Source of the DNA: Mobula hypostoma
Lineage: Eukaryota
Assembly (NCBI RefSeq): GCF_963921235.1
Contig: NC_086097.1
Span: 19,718,001 to 19,782,000 of the forward strand
Direction of reading: 5' to 3'
DNA length: 64,000 nucleotides
A program made the translations under genes and the position numbers. The notes beneath the pieces are model-generated. The model did no database searches and was not told the origin of the DNA. It saw nothing but the letters and a program-made list of their open reading frames with translations. This document shows, piece after piece, positions 522 to 59,900 of this stretch. Positions within the stretch are counted from its first letter, which is position 1; each line of letters begins with the position of its first letter.

Positions 522-2516
522 GGGGGATGTCAGACGCAAGTTCTTTACACAGAGCGTAGTGAATGTGTGGAATGCCCTGCAAGGGTGGTGGTAGAAGAGG
601 CAGATACATCAGGGGCATTCAAGAAACTCTTAGACAGACACATTCCCACTGCTGTCTGAAAGGAGTTTGTACATTCTCCCCGTGACCGTATGGGTTTCCT
701 CCAGGTGCTCTGGTTTCCTCCCACAATCCAAAGACAAAACAGTTGGTTAAGTTAATTAGTCATTGTAAATTGTCCCGTGATTAGGCCAGGGATAAATCAG
801 GGGATTGCTGGGTGGTGTGGCTTGAAGGGTCAGAAGGGCCTATTCTGTGCTGTATCTCAATAAATAAAACAAATAATTAAATTATGATAGCAAAATGGAG
901 GAGGGAAGGGTTAGATTGATCTTGGAAAGGTTAAATGGTTGGTAGAAGATCATGGGTCAAAGGGCCTGGCCTGTGCTGTGATGTTCTATGTTCTCTTTTC
1001 AACAGTCCAGTGAGACTGACTCTCGCTGTTCCCCCTTCATAACCTCGACTGCTTTCTGGCAGTCCTGATGAAGCGTTTTGCCCTGAAACGGCAACTATAT
1101 ATTCCTTTCAACAGATGCTGCCTGACCTGCTGAGTTCCTCTAGCATTTTGTATGTTTTGCCTCAGTACGATGTTGCATTAATAGACTTCTTTCAGTCACA
1201 GGACCAACAGTATAACCCATCTTTATTCAGAGATTGCAAAGGCCCAGAACAGATGGTAATAATACTGAACAACCCTTTTCTCTCAACAAATCAGGGGCAG
1301 AACCTTGTCTCCAAGTGTCTCTCTACTCCTGTTACTGTAGATGGCAGCACTCCCATCATCCATCCAGCAGGGAGAGGCATTGAGCCCATTCTCGAGCTTT
1401 ACGCCTGGAACTCAACACCAGTTCTGTACTGAGGGAGAAGCAGACCATCAGAACTTTAGATGAAAAGACAATGGGGTGACCTGTTGGGCACCCTTTGAGA
1501 GAAGGGTAATGCAGTGTGATGTGACCAGGATGAACATTAAATTTTCCTGAATGCTATTGGTATCGCTTTGCTTTGGAAACTGAAGCAGAAAACCTCAGTT
1601 TATTAAAGAAGAACGATGCATAGCAAAGCAAATATAGCTCCTCCTCGTTTAACGAAGGACACTTTTGATGGCATCATTTCCGGTTTACCTGCCACCCTCG
1701 TGCCTCTCGTTGTCATTCTGGAGACGTGCAGTCCTTTCATCCCCCGTCTCTTCATCTCTTCAGCTGTCTGTTGTTTGTCTCTGATCCTGGAGACGTGCAT
1801 GCCTCTCCTCCTCTGTCTCTTCTTCTCTCATCTTCTTTTGTCCTGACTCTTTGATCCTGGCCTCATCCGATTCTTGTTCTCTCCCTCTCCTTGCCGCTTC
1901 CTGACGACGTTTGGCATTATCTTTTGACCATAATGTCCCCCTTCCCTTTCCACGCGGCATAATTAGGCTGACGTTTTTTTTACCCTAATGCTGGATAGAA
2001 GATACGAAGTACTAACACCAAAGGATGCTGATAATTCTTGATGATGTGGTTGGCGCTCTCCTAAATGGACGTGATATAGTCACCGCTGTCCTTTGACTGC
2101 AGCAAAGGGTTTTATGGATGTCTCGAAGTACGTCATTACAATAAGATTTAATTATCTCTTATTGATGGGTGGCAGTTAGATCTGCCCCAATCCTGCACAT
2201 GCTGATCGTGATTAGCAGAATGTGACCCTTCGAATTAGAGCTGCCCTGCCCTTTTGCTCCAGTAGGTGTCGCTGCTGAGGTTGGCCGTGCGCATGCGTCG
2301 GGCTGTCGCATCCCGATTTCCATGATGGCGGATCGGCTCTCGGGTGAAAGCGAGCCTGGTGATTTTGGCAAATGAGCAATTTTATATGAATATATAACCC
2401 TAAACTTTGCCTGTATTCTGCAAGTTGGCGCATTTTAATTCGATTTAGCCAAAAAAAGTGCCGCTGTAATGCACCGTTTGAACTAATTGGAGGTCACAAA
2501 CAAACAAACAGAGCAT

Positions 2517-3014
2517 AAACACAAAATACTCTGCAGATGCTGGGGTCAAAGCAACACTCACACACGCTGGAGGAACTCAGCAGGTTGGGCAGCATCCATG
2601 GAAACGACCAGTCAACGTTTCGGGCCGGAACCCTTCGTCAGGACTGAAGAGGGAAGGGGCAGAGGCCCTATAAAGAAGGTGGGGGGAGGGTGGGAAGGAG
2701 AAGGCTGGTAGGTTCCAGGTGAAAAACCAGTAGGGGGAAAGATAAAGGGGTGGGGGAGGGGAGGCATGGAGGTGATAGGCAGGAAAGGTGAAGAAGGAAT
2801 AGGGGAAAGCACAATGCGTAGTAGAAGGAGGCGGAACCATGAGGGAGGTGATAGGCAGCTGGGGGAGGGGGCAGAGTGAAACTGGGATAGGGGAAGGGAG
2901 GGAATTACCGGAAGTTGGAGAATTCGATGTTCATACCAAGGGGCTGGAGACTACCTAGACGGTATATGAGGTGTTGCTCCTCCAACCTGAGTTTAGCCTC
3001 ATCATGGCAGTATG
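2517..3014 (-). mobile_element. 5'-truncated Penelope-like element (GIY-YIG C-terminus plus hammerhead-bearing terminal repeat)
   Basis: [34 protein letters not shown]; 13-bp TSD ACAAACAGAGCAT at 2504-2516 and 3015-3027. Confidence 0.85.
2609..2646 (-). ncRNA. Minimal type I hammerhead ribozyme motif in PLE terminal repeat
   Basis: Minus strand CAGUC-CUGACGA-AGGGUUCCGGCCC-GAAAC-GUU-GACUG: stem I CAGUC/GACUG, catalytic boxes CUGANGA and GAAA, stem II GGG/CCC after an extra A, palindromic AACGUU in place of stem III. Confidence 0.7.
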
Positions 3015-3048
3015 ACAAACAGAGCATGAGAGTTTTAGTAGTATATAG

Positions 3049-3908
3049 TGTTACGAGAATACACATAAAATTAAGATGTTTGCTGGCCTGGGCTAGCATC
3101 AGTGGCATCAGCAATTGGTCTGCCACCTGCCCTCAGGGGAAGGAGAGATAAGGAACAATGGAGCAGCGTCTGGAGATGTGTAATGAAGGGACGTGGGAGA
3201 GAGAGCTGTCTGGAGCGGCTCCCCCCTTTGAACCCTGAACTGTTTGAAGTGATGGACAGGCGATACCCCAGCAGGGGGATAAAAAGGGACAGGTTCGCTA
3301 AGACACACACACGCCACCCGAGGTAACGAGACCCTGGAAGCGGTGCGCCTCTCACGAGTGGGTGAGAAGTGCCAGACAACGACAAGGGTGGAAAGGTACG
3401 ATCAGCGGGAACCCGGTGTGTGTCCGCCCTGGCCTGGGTGCCGGGTTCACTGCAGAGGATCGACCGCATCTGGAGGAGGGGTCACAGTCGGTGACCTCAG
3501 GTGACATCACCAAGGACCCGCCCAAAAGTTGCTTGTGAGCAATCTCGCTGATCTGTGAGTGAAGCTGTGCTGAATGATGAGTTGTTCCTGTTCTCTCTGT
3601 CTCTCTTCCCGCACGTTGTCCATCGCCATGGCAACGATTACTGCGAACTGAACTACTAACTGGACTGAACTTTGAGTCATTTTGAAATTTGGTCATTTAC
3701 CCCTAGACAACGATAGAGCTTGATTGATGCTGTTATCTTAATGCTGTGCACATGTGTGTTTATCATCACTGAACTGTTGCATTTATTATCCTTTCGATTA
3801 CTGTGTTGCTTGTTTCTTTAATAAAACTTTCTTAGTTCTAGTACTCCAGACTCCAACTGAGTGATCCATTTCTGCTGGTTTGGCAACCCAGTTACGGGGT
3901 ACGTAACA
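3049..3908 (+). mobile_element. Solo LTR (Gypsy-like)
   Basis: Termini TGTTACG...CGTAACA; 4-bp TSD ATAG (3045-3048 and 3909-3912); AATAAA near 3820. Confidence 0.85.
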
Positions 3909-4442
3909 ATAGATATTAAACCAAGGTCCTATCTGCTCTCTCAGGCAGAAGTAAAAGGTGCCAATCACACTATTCCAAGAAGCACATTTACATGGAGTGC
4001 TGCCACAAAAAGAGCAGTATCCATCATCAAAACCCCACCACCACCCAGGCCACGCCGCCTCTTTGCTACTATCATCAGGCAGGAGGTATCGGGGCCTAAG
4101 GACCCACAGCACCAGGTTCGGGAACAACCAACAAGCTCCTGAACCAGTGCAGATAATTTCAACCACCACTGCTCCAAGCTGATTCTACGACCTACAGACT
4201 CACTTCCAAGGACACGAAGGATTCTGCAGATGCTGGAAATCCAGGGTAATACACCCAGAAGGCTGGAGGAACTCAGCAGATCAGGCAGCATCTACACAGG
4301 AGTAAAGAGTCAACGTCTCGGGCTGAGACCCCCCCATCAGGACAGACTTTCAAGGACCCTTTACATCTCATGTACTCAGCATTATTTTCTATTTGCATAG
4401 TGCGTCTTCCTTTGAACACTGGTTGTTTGTCCATCTGTTTGT

Positions 4443-4525
4443 ACATAGATTTCATATACAAAATATAGACATATAGATTTCATATACAAAGTAAAGACAT
4501 ATAGATTACATATACAAAGTTAGAC
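4443..4525. repeat. About 27-28 bp AT-rich tandem repeat, 3 copies
   Basis: acatatagatt(t/a)catatacaaa repeated. Confidence 0.8.
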
Positions 4526-5720
4526 ATCTTTGATGATAAATTTAGTTTGAACTTTGACACTCTTGCTGCATTCCAGCTAAATTTACCCTGAGCCCATGAT
4601 AAATTATCCAGCTATGACAGTGCTGTTTGTGGGAGTGTCCTGTAGCCAGATATGCTGTACTTCAGCAATAGTTCATGAGTCACAGAGCAACTTGGACCAT
4701 CTCCAGCTTTGAAGTGACACAATATAAATACACCTCTTTCCTGGAAGTAATTTGGAAGTTGTGTATCTCAGGTAGTCAACAGCTGGTTGAGTTGTTCTTG
4801 CCGACATCCATCTCATCATTTTTTTTATACAACTTGATCGCATATTTTTCTAGGTGATTATACACATCGGAGTTAAGCATTCAGACCATACATTTCCTGT
4901 TTTGCCTGGCGATAGACCATGCCACTGGATGGTTGATTGGTGGCCAGTAACTGACTCTTTGTAGTCTATATTTTGGGCATCAAATGCTCAAGTGTGCTGG
5001 TTGTTGGGAGAACTTGACCTGCAGGCAAGCCTCCACACAGGAGCAACTTTTCCTCCTCCATGAATGCTTAAGGCGGGGGAGGGGGTGGGGGGGGGAACGA
5101 TCAAGTTATAAAACAGGAACGAGATGAATGCTGCAAGATCGGAGAACAACTCAACCCAACGACATCCTTTCTGTTTACCACACAGAATAGCTATCACACT
5201 GTGGTCCATCATTGCACAGACCTCCAACGTCACACCCTGGAGTGGAACAGTTTCCAATCTGCCCCAACTCCATCCATTCAGAAAGACACCACGCTTTCAC
5301 CGATGCTGACTGCCACATCTATTTATGTCGAGGGTTCCACAACGTGCCAATTCCAACCACGGCTGCTCAGATCTGAAGCTATGGTTCAACTGCTGTATCA
5401 GTGAGTCCAAAGCACCATCAGGGACATCCAGGAAGTAGCAGGTTGCTCAGGGAAACAGGAACAGTGCAGAACCGACATTCCCCAACTGGGCCCAATCTGC
5501 CCCATGTTAGATGGCAGCACAAAACCAGCAATCAAGAATGCTGCTCCTATTGTCAGGACTGCCTAATGAAACTGGAACTCATCTCAATCGATCAACACCC
5601 ACTTCCGGTGCTCCCAAAGACCTGGAAACCATAGTCTTTGGCTGGCCCTGACAGCCTGCCCTTCCAGCCCTGGAAGGCTGCTGCAAGCAAGTTTCTCGCT
5701 GCACCTGGACCGCCAGCACT

Positions 5721-6562
5721 CTTTCCAGTCAAGATGGCGCCAGCGAGCAATGCTCCCTCGGTCCGCATCTTCCAGATAGCTCACGAAAATATCCTTTTCA
5801 CTTCTTTTCCGTCTGTTTAAGGTGAAATGTGTTTCTGGGACATTTAAGAGTTAGAGCCTGCGACTTACAGTTTGGAGATTGTTTGAGTGATCCAGCTCTT
5901 TGTTGTCTCCAAGAAGATTGAGGGAAGCGAGCACGTACTCGGAAGGCCTCGATGCGAAGAAACTTCAAGACAGGGCATGTGCCAATGTCTCGCCATTTAA
6001 AGCTTCCATTAATTCCTGATTAGAGCGTCGAGGCAGATTAAGACACAGAAGCAGATGCGAGGCAGGCGAGAGTCTCGGCGCAGACTGTGGCTTTTTGATC
6101 ACGGCTGGAGAAGGAGCCTGTGAGTGGCCTGTCACTGTGTGGCTCGCTGTGTGCCTTGCTGCACTCATATGGTACCCACTCTTTCGATGATGCCGTAGGA
6201 TGGTACAGTGGTTTTGCGTTTATGGATTGGACTACTGTGTTTATAGACTGTCAACTTCTTCTGACTTATGGTTTTTACATTGCGTTTTTTTATTACCCGT
6301 TCCTTTTCTGTTTTGTTGTGCGAAGGGAGGGGTTTGGGCGTTGATGTTCTGTTAGCTCTTTCATGTGGGGGAGGTATTGCTTTCTGAGGGTCATTTTGTG
6401 TGGGGGGAGGGGGATTTTGGGGGTTGATGATCACGATGCTATTCTTTTTTTGTACGGGGGGGTGTAGATTTGATGTTTCTCTCTGAAACAACTTTCATTT
6501 TCTTTCTTATTTTCATAGCTATCCGGCGGACACGTGCTTTGATAATAAATGAACCTTTGACC
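5721..6562 (+). mobile_element. Non-autonomous LINE-derived element
   Basis: 5' AAGATGGCG motif; 3' tail GATAATAAATGAACCTTTGA resembles tails elsewhere in the window (e.g. about 15210, 27765, 36010). Confidence 0.5.
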
Positions 6563-6659
6563 TCACCATACTTGTGATCACAGCCATAAACTCCAAAATT
6601 GACCTGGCAGCATGAACTGACAGAGAACCGCAGTTTTCTACCAAAGCCTCGCTTGTCCC

Positions 6660-7022
6660 TTTATTATGTGCCGTGTCGTATGACATGGGCAATCATGGTC
6701 TTTGTATGACCATGACTGTTACTGGTAAATTTTTCTACAGAAGAGGTTTGCCATTGCCACCTTCTGGGCAGTGTCTTTACGAGACGGGTGACCCCAGCCA
6801 TGATGAATGGTCTTCAGAGACTGTCTGCCTGGTGTCAGAGGTCACATAACCAGGACGTGTGATGTGCACCAGCCGTTCATACGAACATCCCCACCTGCTC
6901 CCATGGCTTCATGTGACCCTGATCAGTTGCTACACCTTGTCCAAGGGTGACCTGCAGACTAGCAGAGGAAAGGAGCGCCTTACACCTCCTTTGGTAGAGA
7001 TATATCTCTAACATGCCATCCA
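6660..7022 (-). mobile_element. SINE-like element with RTE-type 3' tail
   Basis: Minus strand GGCAATGGCAAACCTCTT...CACATAATAA tail, recognised from memory of RTE-dependent SINEs. Confidence 0.45.
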
Positions 7023-7129
7023 ACTGATTCTATAAAATAACAGAATCTAATTGTGAATTCTTCAAGTTCCCAGTTGCCTGATAGCGACTGTTTCTTCAAA
7101 ACACAGATTTCAAAAGTAAATGTGGTTCA

Positions 7130-7860
7130 AAACTTGCTTGCTTTGCCCTTGTCCTTCTACACTCCTGACTGTGGGGCTAGCGACTGCCCAAATACCATTT
7201 ATGAATTCACCAGTGACACAGCTGTTAGCCAAATCTCAGATGGCAACAAGGGGACGCATAGGAGCGAGATAGATCAGCTGGCTCTGTGGTGTGGCAACAA
7301 CGACCTTGCACTCAACATCAGCTATTGGGGACGTCGGGAGGACACACACCAATCCTCATCAAGGAGTCAGCACAGAAAAGGGGGGCAGCTTTGACTTCCT
7401 GGCCATCGACGTCTCACAGCATCTATCCTGGGCCCAACACATTAATGCGCTGGTGTATCATGGCTATACTTCGTTTGGAGTTTGAGGATATTTAGTATGT
7501 TACCAAAACACTTGCGAATTTCTGTAGTAGCGAGCATTCTGACTGGTTGCATCACTGCCTGACATGGAGGCTGCAATGCACAGAATTGGAAAAAGCTTCA
7601 GAGGACGGTAAACTCAACCATCTCCATCATGGACATTAGCCTCCCCATCATCAAAGGCATCTTTAATAGGCAATGCCTGAAAAAGTTTGCAACATTATTA
7701 AGGACTCTCACTACCCAATTTATTTCCTTTTCCCATTGCTGCCATCAGGGAGGTGGTACAGGAGCATGAAGACCTGCACTCAAAGATGTAGGAACAGCTT
7801 CTTACCCTCCACCATCAGATTTCTAAATGGTTCTTGAACACTACCTCACTATTCCTCTTC
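7130..7860 (+). mobile_element. Decayed Rex1/L2-like LINE 3' fragment
   Basis: Remnant RT C-terminus (...DQLALWCGNNDLALNIS...; LLPSGR-type end) with frameshifts. Confidence 0.65.
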
Positions 7861-8818
7861 TGTAGTAGTGAATGCTGCAGCTCTGCTAGAAAGAGCCCAA
7901 GCTTCTCATGGACAAGGGCGACAGGGGTATAACCAGCGACAGGTCACAGTACCCAGTCTTTGAAACACCTAGCTATTTCTTCATTGCTGCTGGTTATCTA
8001 ACAGGTCGGGGAGTACGTCACCCGGACCTCAAACAGCTCACCCCCACCCGCACTCTGAAATGCCAGCTTCACCAGCCATGTTGGTGTATGAAGAACAACC
8101 CCAGGCTTTTGTAACTCTGCTGCCCACTCCAATACTTATCCACTGATTGACGTCTCTAGAGTTCAAGTTCAAGTTGACTGTCTTTCTACCACTAAACTTA
8201 ATGAAGTTCCTCCGGGCCAGGGGGAACAATACAGTACATACAACTCACACACAACGCATAAAAGTAATATGACCACAAATAAATTAACAAGTAAAAAAAT
8301 ATATTCCAGAAGATTGACTTCAGCATGAAGTACATTATGGACACAAGTTAAGAAGTAAACGGTATAATACTATTGGCGCTTCATACATGTTGAGACCTGG
8401 GTGGTAGAAGAGAGTTCAGTGGGTCTCACAGCCCGGAGAAAGAAGCTGATTCCCACCCAAACAGGGCTTGTCCTAATTCTGCAGAACCTCCAGCCCGATG
8501 GTAGGGGGGTCAAAGTGATTATGGGGTGGCTAGGAGGGATCACTGACAATGCTAAGGGCCCTGCATATGCAGCAGTCCTGACAAATCAGATGGGCAGAAG
8601 AGAGACCCCAGTGTTCCTCTCAGCAGTCCTCGCAATACATTATAACAGCGGCTGTACATCAGAAATGCAATGTGACTTCCCATTCCCATTCTAACATAGT
8701 CAGCACGGATGAGTTGGGCCGAGGGGCCTGTTTCCAAGACTATTAACTCTATGACTTTAATAAACACATTGGTTCCCCACGGTATCTCAAGCAACTGACG
8801 AAAGAAGCATCCTCTTAC

Positions 8819-8911
8819 CTGTCTGCCACCAGGTATCCATCACTGGACATCTGCTGTCTCCAACTACCCGGTAATACCAGTCCCATGCCTCAGAATTGAT
8901 AGGTTCACCAA
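8819..8911 (-). CDS. ACSS1: ACSS1 exon 8
   Basis: (V)[33 protein letters not shown] acceptor, GTAAG donor; absent from the ORF track, read by hand. Confidence 0.93.
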
Positions 8912-11900
8912 CTGAGAATCAGTCAGAACAAGAAAATTAATTTCATTCTATTGAATGAGGCCCCAAAATCAACATCCTCAGAACACTGTAACCATGGTTA
9001 CCAAACAAGGGCCCAAGGCCTTATCACCTAAAGCTGGTGTCCAGTTAACAGCAGCACCCTTAGCAGCACTGATGTACAGAGGGACCTGGAGGTGCAAGTA
9101 CAGAGCTCCCCGAAGGTCGCATCACAAATAGGCAGGGTGGTAAGAATTAGGTATACTTGCTCAAACATCAGCCCATTGACTACAACATTTTTGAAGTCAT
9201 ATTGCAGCTGTCTTAAGATTTTGTTTAGACCACATTAGGAGTACTGTGTGTAGTTCTGGTCGCCACATTACAGGAAGGATGTGGAGGCTTCAGAAAAGGT
9301 ACAGAAGAGGTCCACTAGGATGCTGTTTGGATTGGAGAGAATTAACTACAAGGAGAGGTTGGACCAACTTGGGGTTGTTTCTCTGGAGCAGAGGCTGAGG
9401 GGTGACCGAATGTAAGTGTGAACCTGGGTCCCTGGCATTGTAATAGCATTATACTAACCAAAAGAATTTTTTAAAATGCTGAGGTGATTGGATGGGTTGA
9501 AGTATTACCATGGTAGAAGTTTATAATCTTACAAGAGGAGCAGATAGTCAGAATCTCTTTCTTTTGGTAGAAATGTCAAATATTAGAGGCATAGAAGTTG
9601 TGGCAAGGCAAAGGTTAAGATGATGTGCCGAGAGTCAATGTGCAGACAGTGTATGATCATCCAAGCTGAACGTGCTGTTGAGAACCTAATTCCTCTTTAT
9701 ACAGTTTCCTTCTTCAAGCCCAGCACTTAGGTAACCAGACAAGATAAGATAAAACTTCATTTATCACAAAGGAAATTATTGTTGCAAGGTTGCTCAGTCA
9801 GAAATAGATACTTTAAAATACAAAATGTAAGCATTGAGGCTTGGAAAAAATACAGAATGTGCATTAAAAAGTAATAGTGCAAAATACAGATGAGCAATGA
9901 AACCATATACTTATATACGTAAGGAGGAGGAGGAGATGTAGTCTTATAGCCGCAGGGAGAAAGGGTCTCCTGTGGTCTTCAGTGATGCGCCTCGGTGGAA
10001 TCAGCCGGTTACTAAAGCTGCTCCTCTGTTTGTCCAGTGTGTCATGGAGGGGGTGAGAGGGATTGTCCATAATGCTCCGTAGTTTCTGCAGCATCCTCCC
10101 CTCAGACACGACCACCAGGGAATCCAAACAAGAGAAAATCTGCAGATGTTCCACCCCCAGAACAGAACCAGCCTTCCGCACAAGCTTACCGATCTGCTTG
10201 GCATCTGCTGCTCTCAGCCTGCTGCCCCAGCAGACTACAGCTTGGAACAAAATGCTGGCCACCACTGAGTCGTAGAACATCTGCACCATAGTACTGCAGA
10301 CGTTGAATGACCGGAGCCTCCTCAGGAAGTACAGTCGGCTCTGTCCCTTCTTGTACAGAGACCCTGTGTTTTTAAACCAGTCCAGTTTATTGTCCAGGTG
10401 AGTTCCCAAGTTTTTGTAGTCCCAGACGACTTCCACATCCGTTCCCTTGATGGAGATGGGAATGCAGGGTGTTTTCACCTTCTTGAAGTCCACCACCAAC
10501 TCCTTTGTCTTGGTTACATTGAACTGCAGGTGATTCAGCCCACACCACTCAACAAAGTTGTCCACCACTCTTCTGTACTCAGCCTCTTGACCCCGGCTGA
10601 TACAGCCCACAATGGCCGAATCGTCTGAAACTTCTGCAGGTGGCAGGACTCTGAGTTGTATCTGACGTCCAAGGTGCAGATGCTGAACAAGAAAGGGGAC
10701 AAGGACAGTCCCCTGAGGTGCCCCTGTGCTGCTAACAACAGTATCTGATACACAGCTCTGCAATCTCACATACTGTGGCTGTCTGGACAGGTCGTCTGTT
10801 ATCCAGGACACCAGTGGAGCATCCACCTGTATCTCCGTGAGCTTACCCCCTGGTAAAGCAGGTCGTATGGTGTTAAAAGCACCGGAGAAATCAAAGGACA
10901 TGATTCTCACAGTGCTGCCTGGCTCATCCAGATGGGTGTAAGCGCATTGAGGCAGGAAGATAATGGCGTTCTCAACTCCAATATGTGGTTGGTCAGCAAA
11001 CTGCAGGGAGTCCAGTGATGGATTTATGATGGTCCAGGAGTGTGTCAGGACCAGTCTTCCTATTGATTTCATAACCTGTGAGGTCAGTGCCGATGGTCTG
11101 TAGTCGCTGGGCGTGGTGGGACATGTCTTCTTGGGTACTGGAACTAGGCAGGATGTTTTCCACAGTAGGACCCTCTCCATGCTCAGGCTCAGATTAAAGA
11201 TGTATTGAAAGACTGCACCCAGCTGAGTAGCACACACGTTGACTGCCCATGGGCTGATGCCATCTGGGCCCATGGCCTTGCCTGGGTGAAGCCTGCTGAG
11301 CTCTCCCCTTCCCTGCTCAGCAGTGACGGTCCACGTGTCTGTGCTCGTTGGCTCTCCGGTGTCCTCTCCAAGGGCAAGGGGTGAGGGGGAGGGAGCTGGG
11401 GGGGGAGGTGGATGGGTTGTAGAAAGGTAAACAGAAGCCTCCTCATCAAACCTGCTGAAAAACCAGTTTAACCCGTTGGCTCTGTCCCAGTCCCCTTCAA
11501 TCATGGTGTCTCTGGTCTTTGTGTAGCCTGTGATCGTTTTCATACCACTCCATGCATCCTTTGTGTTGTTCTGCTGCAGTTTTCTCTCCAGCGTTCTCCT
11601 GTAGCAGTCCATGCCCTGGGCAATCTTCTCCCTCAGTTCCCTCTGAAGCAGCCTCATCTCTTCCCTATCTCCACCTCCGAATGCCCTCTTCTTCCTGTTC
11701 AGAATGGCTTTGATGTCTTTGGTCACCCAAGGTTTATTGTTTGGGAAACAGCATACCGTCCTAGTTGGTACGGGCACGCAGGAGAGGAGCTACAGGGGCG
11801 CGGGCAAGTGGGAGACGAGCTACAGGGGCGCGGGCAAGCGGGAGACGAGCTACAGGGGCGCGGGCAAGCGGGAGACGAGCTACAGGGCACAGGCACGCAG

Positions 11901-14900
11901 GAGAGGAGCTACAGGGGCGCGGGCACGCGGGAGACGAGTTACAGGGGTACGGGCACTAAGCAGAGAAGCTACAGGAGTACGGGCACACAGGAGAGGAGCT
12001 ACAGGGGTACGGGCACACAGGAGAGGAGCTACAGGGGTACGGGCATGCGGCAGAGGAGTTATGGGGCATGGGCACGCGGGAGAGGAGTTACGGGGCACGG
12101 GCACGCGGGAGATGAGTTACAGGGGTACGGGCACTAAGCAGAGGAGCTACAGGGGTACGGGCACACGGGAGAGGAGCTACAGGGGCGCGAGCACGCGGGA
12201 GAGGAGCTACAGGGGCACGGGCACACGGGAGAGGAGCTACAGGGGCGCGGGCACGCGGGAGAGGAGCTACAGGGGCACAGGCATGCGGGAGACGAGCTAC
12301 GGGGCACAGGCACGCGGGAGACGAGTTACAGGGGTACGGGCACTAAGCAGAGGAGCTACAGGGGTACGGGCACACGGGAGAGGAGCTACAGGGGCGCGAG
12401 CACGCGGGAGAGGAGCTACAGGGGCACGGGCACACGGGAGAGGAGCTACAGGGGCGCGGGCACGCGGGAGAGGAGCTACAGGGGCACAGGCATGCGGGAG
12501 ACGAGCTACGGGGCACAGGCACGCGGGAGACGAGTTACAGGGGTACGGGCACTAAGCAGAGGAGCTACAGGGGTACGGGCACTAAGCAGAGGAGCTACAG
12601 GGGTACGGGCACACAGGAGAGGAGCTACAGGGGTACAGGCACACGGGAGAGGAGCTACAGGGGTACGGGCACATGGGAGAGGAGCTACAGGGGTACGGGC
12701 ACACAGGAGAGGAGCTACAGGGGTACAGGCACACGGGAGAGGAGCTACAGGGGTACGGGCACACGGGAGAGGAGTTACGGGGCACGGGCACGCGGGAGAC
12801 GAGTTACAGGGGTACGGGCACTAAGCAGAGGAGCTACAGGGGTACGGGCACACAGGAGAGGAGCTACAGGGGTACGGGCACATGGGAGAGGAGCTACAGG
12901 GGTACGGGCATGCGGCAGAGGAGTTACGGGGCACGGGCACGCGGGAGACGAGTTACAGGGGTACGGGCATTAAGCAGAGGAGCTACAGGGGTACGGGCAT
13001 ACGGGAGAGGAGCTACAGGGGTACAGGCACACGGCAGAGGAGCTACAGGGGTACGGGCACACGGCAGAGGAGCTACAGGGGTACGGGCACGCGGCAGAGG
13101 AGCTACAGGGGTACGGGCACATGGGAGAGGAGCTACAGTGGTACGGGCACACGGGAGAGGAGTTACGAGGCACGGGCACACGGGAGACGAGTTACAGGGG
13201 TACGGGCACTAAGCAGAGGAGCTACAGGGGTACGGGCACGCGGGAGAGGAGCTACAGGGGTACGGGCACACGGGAGAGGAGCTACAGGGGTACGGGCACG
13301 CGGCAGACGAGTTACGGGATACGGACACGCGGCAGAGGAGTTACGGGATACGGACACGCGGCAGAGGAGTTACGGGGATACGGACACGTGGCAGAGGAGC
13401 TACAGGGATACGGACACGCGGCAGAGGAGTTACGGGATACGGACACGCGGCAGAGGAGCTACAGAGGTGCGGGCACACGGCAGAGGAGCTACAGGGGTAC
13501 GGGCACATGGGAGAGGAGCTACAGGGGTACGGGCACGCGGGAGAGGAGTTACGAGGCACGGGCACACGGGAGACGAGTTACAGGGGTACGGGCACTAAGC
13601 AGAGGAGCTACAGGGGTACGGGCACGCGGGAGAGGAGCTACAGGGGTACGGGCACACGGCAGAGGAGCTACAGGGGTACGGGCACACGGCAGACGAGTTA
13701 CGGGATACGGACACGCGGCAGAGGAGTTACGGGATACGGACACGCGGCAGAGGAGTTACGGGGATACGGACACGTGGCAGAGGAGTTACGGGGATACGGA
13801 CACGTGGCAGAGGAGCTACAGGGATACGGACACGCGGCAGAGGAGTTACGGGATACGGACACGCGGCAGAGGAGTTACGGGATACGGACACGCGGCAGAG
13901 GAGCTACAGAGGTGCGGGCACACGGCAGAGGAGCTACAGGGGTACGGACACACGGCAGAGGAGCTACAGGGGTACGGGCACACGGCAGAGGAGCTGCAGG
14001 GGTACGGGCACAAAATGCTGGGAGAACTCAGCAAGTCAGAAAACATCTGTTTAGGGGAATAAACAACTGATGCTTCAGGTCAAGACTCTTCATTAGGGCT
14101 ACAAGGAAATAAAAGGAGCAATAGGATGCTCCAATGAGATTGCTCTGCTGAGAGCTGGCATGGACTCAACGGGCTGAATAGCCTCCTTCAGTTTTGTTAT
14201 AAATAAATAAATTAGAGCCCATCTGCCCTCTTCTGTCAGAGTCCTGGTCAACCAACATGGCCAAAAGCAGATGACAATAGCTGTCTCCGGAAGCAACAGT
14301 GATTAAACATGCAGGAAGGGTGATGTATAAATGCAAGCCCTGTACTCCAAGGGGCAGCAAACTGACCTGAGCCCAGTACTTTCAGCGAGGACCGGTCGTG
14401 TGACTTCACCCACTCGTCCCCGTACTTGAGTAGCAGACGGATTGCGGTAGGTGCCCCGTAGAACTGGTTGATCTTCATCCTTTCAACCATCTCCCAGTAA
14501 CGGCCTGAAACACAGGGCACAGATGCGAAGGGTCACTGAGCAGATGGAGCCCACAGGCAAAAGCCCACCACTGGCACCTTGCATCCCTTGATCCTGAGTC
14601 CTGCCGGACTGTTCGAGCCAGGAAGTCACAATGAACCCAAGCAAACTCACCATCAAATTCCGAGTCTGAACTCTGCGGGTTCAAGTGCAACTTTTAAGGG
14701 AAGTTTGGATAAGTACGTGGATGGGAGGGGTCTGGTCCAGGTGTGGACCAATGGCACTAGTTCAGCATTGTGTTGATTGGGCTATAAGGGCCTGTTTCGG
14801 TGTTGTAGTGCTCTTTGGCCTCCCTCTGCAACAGGATCCTTCGCTTCCTGACCAACCAACCATAATCAGTAAGGGTGGGCAACAGCACACTTATCTCCCA

Positions 14901-17900
14901 CATTGTTCACTCCTCTCCCCATAGCACTGAGGCTATGAAGACTGCCCCAGCTGCTCTGCTCTATACCCACTAATATGATGAACTGATACCGAGGCTTCGG
15001 GCCTACTCCGGGGTTCGGACCTAACGACTCATTTTGGTTCATAAATTTGTTGCTTGCTTTTACTGTTTGCATGATTTGAGTTTTTTCTCTATTTCTCTGC
15101 GCATCGGGTGTTGGTCTTTTTTTTTAATTGAGTTCTTTCAGGTTTCTTGCTTTGTGGCTGCCTGTAAGCAAACAAATCTCAAGTTGTATAATTTATACAT
15201 TATTTGGTGATAAATGTACTTTGAAACATCGTGGGTTGAAAAGCTTGTACTGTTCTGCCTGTTTTATGTTCTATGTTTCCGTTGAAGTTGGGTGAGACTA
15301 GAATTAAAGGTCATAAGTTAAGGTGAACTATTTAGGGGAACCTGAGGGGGAACTTCTTCACTCAGAGGGTGGTGAGTGTGTGCAGTGTAATTTCAGCCTG
15401 AGATGGTGGATGCAGGTTCAGTTTCAACATTTTAGAGAAATTTGGCTAAGTACATGGATGGGAGGGCTAAGGTCCACCTGCAGATTGATGGGACTAGTCA
15501 GAATAATAGTTCAGCATGGACTAGATGGGCTGAAGGGTCTGTTTCTACACAGTAGTGCTCTGACATCATGTTCTATGTAAATTAAGATCACAACACTTCC
15601 TCGCCATTCAATATAAACATGGCTGATCAATGTTGGTCTCAATTTGGACTGAGATCAGTTGGCATTCTTAAAAGTTAGAATGTTCCCGCGATGCAAGCCC
15701 TAAATCTCAGCAACACCCTCCAGTGGATTGCAATCATTCCATTATTAATCCAGTTACACGAGGACATTGAAACCAGAAAACAGAGGAAGCTGGGCTCTTA
15801 TCAGGTTATTTTCAGGATCAAGTCAACAGCTGGTAAAAAAGTCAATCATTCTGTGAATCCATGGGCACAATGTGCAAAATTCATCCTTTGTGCCTCACTG
15901 GACTCAAATCCTTCCAAAGCAGAACTAGATTATTTTTTTTTAAAAACTGTTCCGGGGCAGAGAGCAATGCAAAGATTCTAGGCAGCGGTCCCAGAGGATT
16001 TACAACATTCACTTAATCCCGCAGATGGCAATCTCTGAGCGACACCAAGTATCTGTTTGAAAAGCACTCTCTTCACATGGGCTCCAACACACGAGATGCT
16101 GGAGGAAATCAGCAGGTCAGGCAGCATCTACGGAAATGAATAACCAGTTGACGTTTCTGGCCGAGATCCTTCATTAGGGGTGAGAACCCCCATCAGAACC
16201 CATCACTACTGTTCCACCCTGGTTCCTGAGTTCTCCCATGGCATTCTGAGACCCCTGTCTGCCTCCTCATTGGATTTGAGACATAAAGGACCCTGACAGG
16301 CAATACCAAAGGAGAAGAGAGGAGGTTTCCCTGTGGGTTTTCGTATTGCAGCTCTTACAAAACTCTGGTTACACCACACTTAGGGTATTGTGTTCAGCTC
16401 TGCCCACACCATTACAAGAGGATGTGGAAGCTTTAGACAGGATGCTACCTGGACTTGATTAGATTAGATTCAACTTCATTGTCATTGTGCCGAGTACAGA
16501 TACAAAGCTAATGAAATGCAGTTGGCATCTAACCAGAAATGCAAAGAATATTGTTAGTTACAAAATAACTGCAAATAAAAAGTAAGTGCTACAGCACACA
16601 AATATAAACGTACTGAGACAGTACAATATGGGTGCAACACACACAAAAATTGCTGGTGAACGCAGCAGGCCAGGCAGCATCTCTAGGAAGAGGTGCAGTC
16701 GACGTTTCAGGTCGAGACCCTTCGTCAGGACTAACTGAAGGAAGAGCTAGTAAGAGATTTGAAAGTGGGAGGGGGAGGGGGAGATCCGAAATGATAGGAG
16801 AAGACAGGAGGGGAGGGATGGAGCCAAGAGCTGGACAGGTGATTGGCAAAAGGGATATGAGAGGATCATGGGACAGGAGGTCCGGGAAGAAAGAAAGGGG
16901 GAGGGGGGAAGCCCAGAGGATGGGCAAGGAGTATAGTGAGAGGGACAGAGGGAGAAAAAGGAGAGAGAGAAAAAAAATGAATAAAAATAATAAATAAATA
17001 AATAAATAACGGATGGGGTACGAAGGGGAGGTGGGGTATTAACAGAAGTTAGAGAAGTCAATGTTCATCCCATCAGGTTGCCTGAAACCTCGAATGTACC
17101 TCTTCCTATAGATGCTGCCTGGCCTGCTGCGTTCACCAGCAATTTTTATGTGTGTTGCTTGGAATTCCAGCATCTGCAGATTTCCTCGTATTTGCGACAA
17201 TATGGGTGCAATACTGCTTAGCGCTGTGATGTGAGGTCCAGCAGGGTCACAGCTCCCGCACCAGCAGGCACAGAAAGAGCTTCTTCCCTGAGGCTGTGAC
17301 ACTGCTGAACCTCACATCACAGCGCTAAGCAGTATTGCATCCGTATTGTACTGTCTCAGTACTTTTATATTTGTGTGCTGTAGCACTTTTTTTTATTCAC
17401 AGTTATTTTGTAAATAATACTATTCTTTGCATTTCTGGTCAGATGCTAACTGCATTTCATTGGCTTTGTATCTGTACTCGGCACAATGACAATAAAGTTG
17501 AATCTAATCTAAGCCTCAGGGAAGAAGCTCTTTCTGTGCCTGCTAGTGTGGGAGCAGAGGCTCCTATAGAGCCTACCAGATGGGAGGACAGTAAAAAGTT
17601 CATGGTTAGGGTGAGATGCATCCTTGATAATGCTTTTTGCACTGCCCAGGCAGCGTTTATAGTAGATGTTCTCAATGGTGGGCAATTGGGTGCCGATAAT
17701 CCGCTGGGCAGTTTTAACCACACGCTGGAGTGCTTTGCAGTCTGATACGGGACAATTGCCATACCACACTGAGATGCAGTTGGTGAGTATGCTCTCAATG
17801 GTACAGCGGTAAAAGTCCATCAGTATCCTGGGACAGAGGTGAGCTTTCCTGATGCTCCACAGGAAATAAAGGCACTGTTGCACCTTTTTGATCAGGATGA

Positions 17901-20900
17901 GGAGTTCAGGGACCAGGTGAGATCCTTGGAAATGTGGACACCAAGGAATTTGAAGCTTGATACATGCTCCACTACAGCTCCGTTGATGTAGATGGGGACA
18001 TGAGTGTGGCTCCTAGCATGCCTGAAGTCCACAATAATCTCCTTGGTTTTCTGGGTGTTAAGAGCCAGGCTGTTGTTGGCACATCATGCAGCCAGGTGCT
18101 GGACCTCGTCCCTGTAGACCGTCTCATCATCCCCTCTGATCAGGCCAACCACCGTGGTGTTGTCTGCGAACTTGATTATGGAGTTAGAACCATGTACAGG
18201 AACGCAGTCATAGGCGAAAAGGGAGTACAGAAGAGGGCTCAGCACACAGCCTTGAGGCACGCCGGTGTTCAGGGTGAGAGTGGAGGAGGATAGATTGTCT
18301 AACTTAACAGATTGGGGTCTGTTAGTCAGAAAGTCCAAGGTCCAATTGCAGAGGGATGAGCTGATACCAAGCTGGCGAAGTTTGGTGATCAGCTTGGAGG
18401 GGATCACAGTATTGAATGCCGAACTAAAGTCAATGAACAGCGTTCTGACGTAAGAGTTGGGGCTGTCCATGTTGGTCAGGGCAGAGTGAAGTGCCATGGA
18501 GATGGCATCCTCAGTTGACATGTTGGTGCGATAGGCAAATTGATGGGGGTCCAGGCTAGTGGGCAGACAGGATTTCAGATGTGATAGCACCAGTCTCTCA
18601 AAACACTTTGCAATGATGGGGGTGAGTGCAACTGGGCAGAAGTGGAGTCATTCAGGCCGGTGGCAGTGGAATGCTTCGGCACTGGCACGATGGTGGCGAG
18701 CTTGAAGCTTGTGGGGACAACTGCCTAGGCCAGGAACAGATTAAAAATGTCCGTGAAGACCCCGGCTAACTGCCCTGCACAGACTCTGAGCACACGGCCA
18801 GGTATTCCATCCGGACCAGCTGCCTTCCGTACATTCACCCTGCTCATGGTGGCGCAAACATCGGAGGTGGAAAGTGAGAGAGGCAGTTCACCAGGTGGGA
18901 GATCCGCTTTGAGGGTGACCTCCTTGTTCTCTCGGTCAAAGCGAGCGTAGAAGTAATTAAGCTCATCAGGGAGGGAAGCAGAGCTGGAAGGGGGCACAGT
19001 ACTAGGTGGTTTGAAGTCTGTAATGACCTGTATGCCATTAGAGAAAATATCCTAGCCAATCTTTACTATCCGACCTCAGCGAAGCTGGTCATTACCACAC
19101 CACGATCTGTGGGATCTACTATGCTCAACCAGGCCCATATTACAGTAATGATTCCTTGTTCGCAAAACACTCCAACCCACTGAGATAACAAAGAGAATGA
19201 CCTTTTCACTTTGATATCCCTCACTGCAATGTCAGCTGTCTATTCCAACAGCAATTTAGATCAGTCAACTGCTTCATTTTAGACCAGGAGTCATAAAAAG
19301 GCCAGGCCAGATAAGCAAGGCAAGGTCTTTCTCTCAGAGGGACTCATTTAGGAAATTACATGACTTCTTACTATGATCTGTCTTCACTAATTTTCATTTA
19401 ATGTCATCTTATTTAATCCATATTCTCAAAACTGACTAGAAAGTCTGAGATGACAAATTGGAATTTTAACTCGTGTTCTCAAGATTATTGAAACTATTAC
19501 AGCAGAATGAGGGAAGAAGTGGCTGGGGAATGCTGTGTTGGGGATTGGGGGAGGGAAGGGTGGGGGAAAGGAGAGAGGGAGGGGTTGGGAATGAAGGTTG
19601 GGGCTGTGGGGAAGGGAGGAGTTAGAGAATGAAGGGAGGGTCTGGGGAATGGAAGGAGGTTTAGAGAATGGATGGAGGGAGGGTTTGGGGAATGGAGGGA
19701 GGGAGGGTTTGGGGAATGGAGGGAGGCTTAGAGAATGGAGGGAGGGAGGGTTTGGGGAATGGAGGGAGGCTTAGAGAATGGAGGGAGGGAGGGTTTGGGG
19801 AATGGAGGGAGGGAGGGTTTGGGGAATGGAGGGAGGGAGGGGTTGGGGAATGGCAGGAGGGAGGGAGGATTCGGGGAATGCAGGGAGGAAGGGTTTGGGG
19901 AATGGAGTGAGGGAGGATTTGAAAAATGGAAGGAGGGGCTGGGGAAGGAAGATCACTGAGCCTGTGGACAAAAGGAACACAGCAACGAGTACAATCTTGT
20001 TGTCCTGACCTGGGTTGGGGTACACAGGGGTGCTCTCAAACAGAACAGTGGTTCCTCCATTACACAGGGGCCCATACACAGCGTAACTGTGGCCGGTTAT
20101 CCATCCAATGTCTGCGACACAGCCAAACACATCGCCATCGCGGTAATCAAACACGTACTGCAGAGAGATCAGGAGAAAGGCAAGCGCAGTATTATCTCGG
20201 AGCATCACACAGTCATGCACAGCTCTTCATTGAAAATACAACCAAACTCAGCGGTCAGCATAACGCTCTACGGCGCCAGCTATAAGATCAGGGTTCGACT
20301 TCCTCTGCAGTCAATAAGGAGTTACATGTTCTGCCGGAGACCGAGTGGGTTTCTTCCAAGTGCTCTGGTTTCCGCCCACATTTCATATCCCTACCCGTGC
20401 AGGTTAGGGATAGTGAGCTGTGGGCATGCTATGTGGCGACACTTGTACTGTACAAGTCCACAATTTATTTATTGAGATACAGTGCGGCCCGTCGAGACGC
20501 ACTGCCCAGCAATAACCCAACTTAATCTTACCCGAATTTACAATGACCAACTTACCTACCAACCGGTACGTCTTTGGATTGTTGGAGTACCCAGATGAAA
20601 CCCACGCGGATGAAACCCGCACGGTCACGGGGAGAATGTGCAAACTCCTTACAGGCAGCACTGGGAGTTGAACCCAGGTCACCTGCACTGTAAAGCATTG
20701 TGCTAACTACTACACTACCCTGCCACCCATGTGACAAATAGAGCTAATCGGTCTCACCATCACCCACCCATTTACACTAATCATACACTCGTCTAATTTT
20801 TTTTCTCTGTACAATCTCATGAACTCTGCTCTAGAATCTACCACTGATCTATAGTGGAGGGGGATTTCACCAACAGTGAACAGTTAACCTACCAAACTGC

Positions 20901-56900: not shown

Positions 56901-59900
56901 CGTAGAACTGCACGATTTCAGATGAATGTGAACGAAGGACAGAAATATGAGATCCTGAGTGATCTCCTGCTTACGGTCAGGCAGGAGGTACATGAGCCTG
57001 AATTCCCACACATCACCAGATTCATGAATGGTTACTTTCCTACGCCCAGTACAATTCTAATCCCACCTCAGCAACAAAACACGATAGATCACCCTAATGC
57101 ACTACAGTGGATTTGCCCCAACTGTGTTTTTCATTTTTGTATGGCAGAATTTTTTAAATCTCTACACTGTCTTACATAATTTATATTCTGTGGGTCTGTG
57201 CCTATGTGCCTGTGATGATATTGCAAGCAAGTTTGTTTGTTGTACCTGTTCCTCAGAATGAGAATAAAAGCAGCTTGACGTGACTGAGTGGATGTGGGGA
57301 TAATGTTTCCTCTAGGGCAGGAAATCCCCCTTCGGCCCTTCAAGCCTGCACCGCCATTCTGAGATCATGGTTGATCATCTACTATCAATACCCGGTTCCT
57401 GCCTTGTCCCCATAACCCTTGATTCCCCTATCCATAAGATACCTATCTAGCTCCTTCTTGAAAGCATCCAGAGAATTGGCCTCCGCTGCCTTCTGAGGCA
57501 GCGCGTTCCACACCTCCACAACTCTCTGGGAGAAGAAATTCCTCCTCAACTCTGTCCTAAATGACCTACCCCTTATTCTTAAACCATGCCCTCTGGTACT
57601 GGACTCTCCCAGCATCTGGAACATATTTCCTGCCTCTATCTTGTCCAATCCCTTAATAATCTTATATGTCTCAATCAGATCTCCCCTCAATCTCCTTAAT
57701 TCCAGTGTGTACAAGCCCAGCTTCTCTAACCTCTCTGCGTAAGACAGTCTGGACATCCCAGGAATTAACCTAGTGAACCTACGCTGCACCTCCTCCACAG
57801 CCAGGATGTCCTTCCTTAACCCTGGAGACCAAAACTGCACACAGTACTCCAGGTGTGGTCTCACCAGGGCCCTGTACAAATGCAAAAGGATTTCCTTGCT
57901 CTTGTACTCAATTCCCTTTGTAATAAAGGCCAACATTCCATTAGCCTTCTTCACTGCCTGCTGCACTTGCTCATTCACCTTCAGAGACTGATGAACAAGT
58001 ACTCCTAGATCTCTTTGTATTTCTCCCTTACCTAAATCCACACCGTTCAGATAATAATCTGCCTTTCTGTTCTTGCTCCCAAAGTGAATAACCTCACACT
58101 TATTCATATTAAACACCATCTGCCAAGTTTCTGCCCACTCACCCAGCCTATCCAAGTCACCTTGAATTCTCCTAACATCCTCATCACATGTCACACTGCC
58201 ACCCAGCTTAGAACCATCAGCAAACCTGCTGATGTTATTCACAATGCCTTCCTCTAAATCATTGACGTAAATCGTAAACAGCTGTGGTCCCAATACCGAG
58301 CCCTGTGGCACCCCACTAGTCACCACCTGCCATTCCGAGAAACACCCATTCACTGCTACCCTTTGCTTTCTATCTGCCAACCAGTTCTCTATCCATGTCA
58401 ATATCCTCCCCCCAATGCCATGAGCTCTGATTTTACCCACCAATCTCCTATGTGGTACCTTATCGAATGCCTTCTGAAAGTCAAGGTACACCACATCCAC
58501 TGGATTTCCCGCGTCCATCTTCCTGGTTACATCCTCGAAAAACTCCAATAGATTAGTCAAGCATGATTTGCCCTTGGTAAATCCATGCTCGCTCGGCCCA
58601 ATCTTATCACTGCTATCAAGATATGCCGCTATTTCATCTTTAATGATGGACTCTAGCATCTTCCCCACTACTGATGTTAGGCTAACAGGGCGATAGTTCT
58701 CTGTTTTCCCCCTCCCTCCTTTCTTAAAAAGTGGGATAACATTAGCCATTCGCCAATCCTCAGGAACTGATCCTGAATCTAAGGAACATTGGAAAATGAT
58801 CACCAATGCATCCGCATTTCCGGAGCCACCTCCTTTAGTACCCTAGGATGCAGACCATCTGGACCTGGGGATTTGTCAGCCTTCAGCCCCATCAGTGTAC
58901 TCATCACCGTTTCCTTCCTAATGTCAATCTGTTTCAGTTCCTCTGTTACCCTATGTCCTTGGCCCATCCATACATCTGGGAGATTGCTTGTGTCTTCTCT
59001 AGTGAAGACAGATCCAAAGTACTTATTAAATTCGTCTGCTATTTCTCTATTTCCCATAACAATTTCTCCCAATTCATTCTTCAAGGGCCCAACATTGTTC
59101 TTAACTATCTTCCTTCTCTTCACATACCTAAAAAAACTTTTGCTATCCCCCTTTATATTCCTGGCTAGCTTGCGTTCATACTTCATTTTTTCTCCCCATA
59201 TTGCCTTTTCAGTTAAGTTCTGTTGCTCCTTAAAAATTTCCCAATCATTTGTCTTCCCACTCACCTTAGCTCTGTTATACTTCTTTTTTAATGCTATGCT
59301 ATCTCTGACTTCCTTTGTCAACCACTGTGGCCACTTTCCCCCCTTTGAATCCTTCCTTCTCCGGGGGATGAATTGATTTTGCACCTTGTGCATTATTCCC
59401 AAGAATACCTGCCATTTCTGTTCCACTGTCTTTTCTGCTAGGATATCCGACCAGTCAACTTTGGCCAGCTCCTCCCTCATGGCTCCATAGTCTCCTTTGT
59501 TCAACTGCAATACTGACACTTCTGATCTGCCCTTATCCCTCTCAACTCGCAGATAAAAACTTATCATATTATGGTCACTACCTCCTAATGGCTCCTTTAC
59601 TTCAAGATCACTTATCAAATCCTGTTCATTGCACAACACTAAATCCAGAATAGCCTTATCCCTGGTCGGCTCTCGTACAAGCTGCTCCAAAAATGCATCC
59701 CGTAGGCTCTCTACAAACTCCCTATCCTGGGGTCCAGTACCAACCTGATTTTCCCAGTTCACCTGCATGTTGAACTCCCCCATAACTACTGCGACATTTC
59801 CTTTGCCACATGCCATTGTTAACTCCCTATTCAACTTGCACCTAATATCCATGGTACTGTTTGGGGGCCTGTAGATAACACCTATTAGGGTCTTTTTGCC

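Follow-up and report, generated by a model that had tools for sequence, protein, structure and literature searches.

Two minimal hammerhead motifs in introns of a ray ACSS1 gene, carried by truncated Penelope-like insertions and likely inert in the host pre-mRNA

Two introns of the ACSS1 gene of a myliobatiform ray carry, on the sense strand, a compact motif of the hammerhead ribozyme type. Do these motifs cut the pre-mRNA in which they are transcribed, or are they carried along in it? Positions refer to the window, the whole stretch of 64,000 nucleotides that was analysed (Table 1). At a probability of about 0.9, we read the motifs as the pseudo-LTR (pLTR) hammerheads of two separate 5'-truncated Penelope-like element (PLE) insertions, likely inert passengers in the ACSS1 pre-mRNA.

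The minimal hammerhead ribozyme (min-HHR) class of metazoan PLE pLTRs was described in 2014 by Cervera and De la Pena, with no cleavage by single motifs and low cleavage by dimers (PMC4209133). No cartilaginous fish is mentioned in the part of that article cited here, and its supplements may list some. Our own literature search, a narrow one, found no hammerhead ribozymes of elasmobranchs, and min-HHRs of rays may still have been published. Such minimal variants reportedly cleave as dimers, going by the title of a 2016 article by Lunse et al. The class itself being already known, the present locus adds a ray, with a very high copy number, to the animals with PLE min-HHRs.

The motifs and their place in ACSS1

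The exon translation matches the mitochondrial acetyl-CoA synthetase 2-like protein (ACSS1) of Mobula birostris (97%) and Hypanus sabinus (95%). A tblastn search with the Mobula birostris ACSS1 (P0012), covering the window and 100 kb on each side, placed the gene on the minus strand in 14 segments, from 63.7 kb in the window to 15.7 kb before its start. If the gene lacks a non-coding first exon, as the numbering presumes, copy B falls in intron 6, flanked by exons 6 and 7, and copy A in intron 8, flanked by exons 8 and 9, both in sense orientation, just where the initial annotation had put them.

Table 1. Hammerhead motifs, Penelope-like insertions and ACSS1 exons, in window coordinates
Feature	Position	Strand	Remark
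Copy A, minimal type I hammerhead motif	2609..2646	-	ACSS1 intron 8, predicted cut 2614/2613
Copy B, minimal type I hammerhead motif	16696..16733	-	ACSS1 intron 6, predicted cut 16701/16700
5'-truncated PLE insertion A, 498 bp	2517..3014	-	Last 34 ORF codons, 3' pLTR with hammerhead, tail
C-terminal end of PLE RT/GIY-YIG ORF (34 aa)	2911..3012	-	48% identity (25 aa) with the end of P0129, a protein of 904 aa
Insertion A, left 13-bp target-site duplication	2504..2516	.
Insertion A, right 13-bp target-site duplication	3015..3027	.
Sense part of PLE insertion B: last ORF codons, pLTR, tail	16638..17078	-	Upper end approximate
Inverted pLTR tail of insertion B	17081..17196	+	Precedes B in the ACSS1 transcript
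Insertion B, left 15-bp target-site duplication	16623..16637	.
Insertion B, right 15-bp target-site duplication	17197..17211	.
ACSS1 exon 6	20009..20158	-	tblastn and contig-aligned span; few letters shared with joints
ACSS1 exon 7	14367..14503	-	tblastn and contig alignment
ACSS1 exon 8	8819..8916	-	tblastn and contig alignment
ACSS1 exon 9	About 1.3-1.5 kb before window start	-	tblastn

Both copies show on the minus strand the core CUGANGA ... GAAA ... UH in type I order, stems I and II, an extra nucleotide separating position 9 from 10.1, and a palindromic ACGU at 15.2-16.2 with no stem III, so that the pattern listed in the initial annotation (stem I, CUGACGA, stem II, GAAAC, UH, and ACGU in place of stem III) is present at both sites. 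Copy A reads as stem I of 5-6 bp (6 bp by the descriptor), CUGACGA, a bulged A, a 4-bp stem II, GAAA and the palindrome; it keeps all 11 core positions and the G10.1-C11.1 pair, with H17 = U. Copy B has the same layout, with a 5-bp stem I including one G.U (by the descriptor), the bulged A and a 4-bp stem II, but with G.U at 10.1-11.1 and H17 = C. The triplet GUU, with U at H17, is slower than GUC.

These features are those of PLE min-HHRs, which share the type I order, a stem I of 4-5 bp, the extra nucleotide between A9 and 10.1, the palindromic 15.2-16.2 with no stem III, the pLTR position and an occurrence mostly as dispersed single copies from truncated elements (PMC4209133). The G10.1-C11.1 pair is highly conserved in min-HHRs, although it lay outside the descriptor of that study (PMC4209133). 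It was found in 75/207 sampled copies of the ray, against 101/207 with G.U; the sample comprises those of the 303 profile matches that have an ungapped 38-nt region at 24/38 or better, the other 96 having none. The G.U pair thus looks to be a subfamily trait rather than damage peculiar to B, and the term "apparently intact" in the initial annotation holds for A and needs qualification for B. Compensatory changes in the stems carry low information, as the stems barely vary across the 207 copies (0-3 both-side changes per pair).

The bare core pattern CUGAYGA-N5-30-GAAAC matches the window three times, slightly above chance (shuffle mean 0.47; 3/100 shuffles reach 3). Two of the matches are copies A and B, and the other (1065-1089, plus strand) is a decayed relative. 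The Infernal-type check proposed in the initial annotation was negative: Rfam covariance models gave no hammerhead match here at the gathering score or at E <= 10, as would be expected if the models need stem III.

The Penelope-like insertions

We ascribe the motifs to PLEs because of the ORF ends and target-site duplications that accompany them. Insertion A ends in a tail of about 97 nt past the predicted cut. Insertion B as a whole spans 16638-17196 between its duplications and includes an inverted tail, in which 17081-17158 matches 16711-16634 in reverse (93.6% over 78 bp). Of the 29 further loci retrieved for A, every one aligns to it, and many have an inverted partner. Relatives at 92-98% identity (loci L006 and L025) carry RT and GIY-YIG frames, with Pfam matches below the curated cut-offs (E 0.022 and 0.025), and the L025 frame is 44% identical (E 6e-45) to the 904-aa protein annotated with RVT_1 and GIY-YIG. 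An ORF with RT followed by a C-terminal GIY-YIG domain is therefore seen in the relatives, of which the window retains the last codons only, and the pLTR with its tail extension and frequent inverted 5'-truncated partner is also characteristic of PLEs, such a partner being present at B too. Together with the duplications, these frames bear out the identification of a PLE minimal type I hammerhead lacking stem III that had been made from the motif. Copies A and B are thus the standard ends of two separate truncated PLEs, from two subfamilies.

Among the relative alignments, 41 cover the core; each of these stops either at 2517-2519 or at 2546-2562, the 2517 ends being bounded by the end of the query, and none ends within 5 nt of the predicted cut. 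The two clusters are the two-ended tail of a PLE, for which Frangieh et al. 2024 give two RT start sites on uncut RNA as the explanation (PMC11167929). That work concerns PAc, the Poseidon PLE of Anolis carolinensis, whose hammerhead cut only with protein and was not needed for insertion in vitro (PMC11167929). As in PAc, the hammerhead of the ray element sits close to where the pLTR ends, the tail beyond the cut has two favoured 3' ends, and the copies seem to derive from uncut RNA (PMC11167929). The PAc hammerhead has been shown to cut with protein (PMC11167929), whereas the ray motif is a predicted ribozyme; the ray family may belong to the Poseidon or the Neptune clade.

Non-LTR retrozymes of animals are likewise hammerhead-bearing and PLE-derived, they occur in one chondrichthyan genome, and in Xenopus 8/9 of their dimers gave no cleavage (bioRxiv 10.64898/2026.07.22.740005). 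Retrozymes are tandem non-coding units, whereas A and B lie dispersed, as truncated ends of coding PLEs that keep ORF remnants and target-site duplications.

A joint 2502-3014 in the contigs of run X4 was considered as an empty allele of insertion A and rejected: the flanks of A themselves repeat, and there is an unsplit copy elsewhere. Some inverted pLTR pairs are arranged head to head, with a junction only a few bases from the 5' end of the hammerhead; they occur at C1:2546805-2546874, at C1:4659451-4659530 and, outside the window, about 43.8 kb before its start, and their truncation point may be tied to RNA structure. Furthermore, several ray RefSeq isoforms named after host genes contain the endonuclease frame of this PLE (P0121, P0124, P0128 and P0139); these are either exonised copies or annotation artefacts.

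Abundance, strand and decay

Exact copies of a 34-nt pattern that takes in both subfamilies number 52,705 in the genome (26,317 forward and 26,388 reverse), or one per 66 kb, while the reversed control pattern has 0 exact matches genome-wide; the family is not a chance match. The number exceeds those of PLE min-HHRs in the coelacanth (about 4,000) and Xenopus tropicalis (9,000), counted by different methods (PMC4209133). The dominant young subfamily, with 36,349 exact matches to its 34-mer when position 3 is left open, has U at 11.1, so that stem II closes with G.U, or with A-U should the bulged A take up the pairing. In this it is unlike the PLE min-HHRs with their G10.1-C11.1 (PMC4209133).

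Because of this abundance, two sense copies in the 79 kb of ACSS1 are unremarkable: 0.87 intact sense copies are expected there, and the probability of two or more is 0.22. The ACSS1 span contains, moreover, 15 further pLTR remnants that fail the descriptor (5 sense and 10 antisense), which the initial annotation did not list; nor did it point out the inverted tail of B.

Strand was compared in ACSS1 and in 1.60 Mb inside eight other long genes, all on the plus strand, which were found by Pfam exon matches to glypicans and the vinculin/alpha-catenin family. Sense was taken to be the strand on which the exon matches lie, an assignment that unannotated antisense transcription may blur, and the individual names of the eight genes are labels assumed from synteny. 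A profile search of the nine genes yielded 303 pLTR remnants, 145 sense and 158 antisense, of which 37 pass the min-HHR descriptor (17 sense, 20 antisense). Both intact copies in ACSS1 are sense (2/2); with ACSS1 set aside there are 15 sense and 20 antisense intact copies (p = 0.5), a sense fraction of 15/35 whose 95% interval (0.26-0.61) is compatible with depletion up to about 2.8-fold.

Decay of the core is alike on the two strands. In the 149 copies outside ACSS1 that reach 28/38 or better, the share of core letters that are not canonical is 8.0% for sense and 7.5% for antisense copies (p = 0.78). The two core Gs found in CpG context in these subfamilies depart in 46/298 cases and other core positions in 81/1341, a pattern that fits neutral decay. 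These family-level tests in ACSS1 and the eight other genes, whose power is limited, thus revealed no sign of host adoption in the form of strand bias or of slower or faster core decay. The lack of an intron strand bias is modest in-genome evidence that the motifs are quiet in host transcripts.

The conserved intronic hammerheads of amniotes, HH9/RECK and HH10, are single-copy, conserved across species and complete in stem III. The ray copies resemble conserved intronic hammerheads of amniotes in lying in a host intron on the sense strand (PMC6765202). Unlike those, the ray copies are numerous, young and minimal, and they show no sign of selection by the host.

The spacing of copies was also considered. 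In the other genes a sense neighbour within 14.1 kb was found for 8/15 sense copies, against 2/20 for antisense copies with an antisense neighbour; clustering of sense copies was rejected, since counted as same-strand intact pairs within 14.1 kb the figures are 4 sense and 1 antisense (permutation p = 0.23). An inverted partner lies within 1.5 kb of 13/37 intact copies (6 sense, 7 antisense).

In an older pLTR lineage, seen in 27/207 sampled copies, core position 6 is C (CUGCYGA). Exact pattern matches genome-wide number 1,679 with C at this position, 458 with the transition A6G and 68,478 with A6. The C count is above that of A6G, and the CUGCYGA copies therefore look like members of a lineage whose core was already non-canonical as it spread, and whose ribozyme was either dispensable or working differently. 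Other hammerheads with A6C show poor cutting in Mg2+ and a preference for Mn2+ (PMC7151607).

Predicted folds, transcripts and competing explanations

Nearest-neighbour folding takes no account of Mg2+, tertiary contacts or proteins; its small energy differences are soft, the long duplex reported below is not, and by the same method the native pLTR would misfold too, although it can presumably fold in the active element. As isolated 38-mers, A and B are predicted to form stems I and II, and the core G5-A6-C7-G8 pairs with C-G-U-H at 0.82-0.99, a predicted inactive rod. In sequence context the stems of A have a probability of at most 0.005. Those of B, folded with the inverted tail, have a probability of 0.000: the tail pairs at about 1.0 with the 3' strand of stem II, GAAAC, the cut site and the 3' strand of stem I (duplex -141.5 kcal/mol), and on this prediction B is trapped in a 78-bp duplex by the inverted tail, which precedes it in transcription. 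The best predicted co-fold of two copies is an inactive duplex, and a double hammerhead lies 7-14 kcal/mol above two monomer ensembles at 25 and 37 C (9.3-11.2 for B/A). Since the stem I strands of either copy could pair with those of the other, an A/B heterodimer is structurally not impossible.

Transcripts were available as contigs, which cannot show RNA ends, from four runs of two studies that we guessed to be RNA. The joint 14503-20009, with GT-AG ends, removes intron 6 in the contigs of 4/4 runs. Two contigs of 1801 and 2654 nt contain exons 6, 7 and 8 in order, and a third of 2539 nt contains exons 6 and 7 with exon 8 sequence as a loose end. Therefore, normally spliced ACSS1 mRNA is made, a result compatible with fractional cleavage and obtained from animals that possibly lack the two insertions. 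The pLTR repeats reach summed depths of thousands to over 100,000 in the contig sets, with all copies pooled.

These observations suit inert passengers. The hammerhead would serve the RNA processing of the element itself, where two pLTRs sit close in a tandem transcript, and the PLE protein would probably help. A single intronic copy, having no stem III, would fold into inactive forms (B into the long duplex with its inverted tail), would leave with its intron by normal splicing, and would then decay neutrally, fastest at CpG sites. The initial annotation had offered, as its fallback, that the copies are silent and for that reason tolerated; the even strands, the absence of faster sense decay and the predicted inactive folds speak for it.

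Its bolder proposal was that B and A pair across 14 kb through ACGU and that the double hammerhead cuts the pre-mRNA, altering splicing or freeing the segment with exons 7-8. Both copies are indeed sense, 14,088 bases apart, with compatible stem I strands, and Cervera and De la Pena, whose filter retained pairs less than 50 kb apart, observed low cleavage of dimers (PMC4209133). However, the layout occurs at chance frequency and is common elsewhere, as the sense neighbours described above indicate, and neither strand bias nor faster decay accompanies it. The junction at stem III between the partners would be 4 bp only, the double fold is predicted 9-11 kcal/mol above two monomers, and B should be sequestered by its tail; exons 6 and 7 are joined at GT-AG, with exon 8 after exon 7 in the long contigs. 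We found no support for this proposal and regard it as extremely improbable. A non-catalytic effect of double-stranded RNA, in which the B tail and a flanking inverted repeat form a hairpin that undergoes ADAR editing or shortens intron 6 for the spliceosome, deserves equally little credence. The arms are long and similar (78 bp at 93.6% and 182 bp at 91.8% identity), and inverted partners are frequent among intact copies, but they are found on both strands as a routine by-product of PLE insertion, and nothing ties the hairpin of B to a function.

A distinctly unlikely explanation is that the protein of expressed, active PLEs, or abundant pLTR RNA as dimer partner, refolds copies such as A, and that a small share of nascent ACSS1 transcripts is then cut, with an effect too small or too tissue-limited for a strand bias. 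Copy A keeps its full core and G10.1-C11.1, pLTR sequence is plentiful in the contig sets, and the strand test is compatible with a modest effect; against this, sense and antisense cores decay alike, and the triplet of A would be the slower one. The anole PLE hammerhead cuts only with PLE protein added, yet the protein-binding motif lies in the first 172 nt of the anole ORF, overlapping the hammerhead and tail, and no RNA-seq reads were found to end at the anole cut site (PMC11167929). The 97-nt tail of A may be insufficient. Very unlikely in our view is the wider form of this idea, in which the genome would hold tens of thousands of core-intact hammerheads in sense in introns, and expressed PLE protein would switch some of them on in trans, so that transposon activity nicks host pre-mRNAs transcriptome-wide, with copy A among the targets. 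Protein-assisted cutting of intronic copies, if true, would be a new retrotransposon route to damage or regulate host RNA, and annotated genomes of this kind would be a test ground, with thousands of copies for the strand test.

Besides the two insertions, the ACSS1 introns hold other repeats. The 182-bp inverted repeat around insertion B (16459-16640 and 17332-17512) extends the predicted intron 6 hairpin. Intron 7 contains a 30-bp minisatellite of about 75 copies (11767-14011) and, in ACSS1 sense, a long LINE RT/endonuclease-like open frame of 641 aa (9864-11789, minus strand); similar sense frames of 485 and 394 aa lie in intron 1 (57385-59984, minus strand). At 20653-20724 (minus strand) Rfam gives a tRNA match of 36.6 bits with no ARAGORN call, probably the head portion of a SINE derived from a tRNA. 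Just upstream of copy A, in intron 8, a solo-LTR-like element of 860 bp (3049-3908) has TG...CA inverted ends and a 4-bp flanking duplication, and its summed contig depth is very high.
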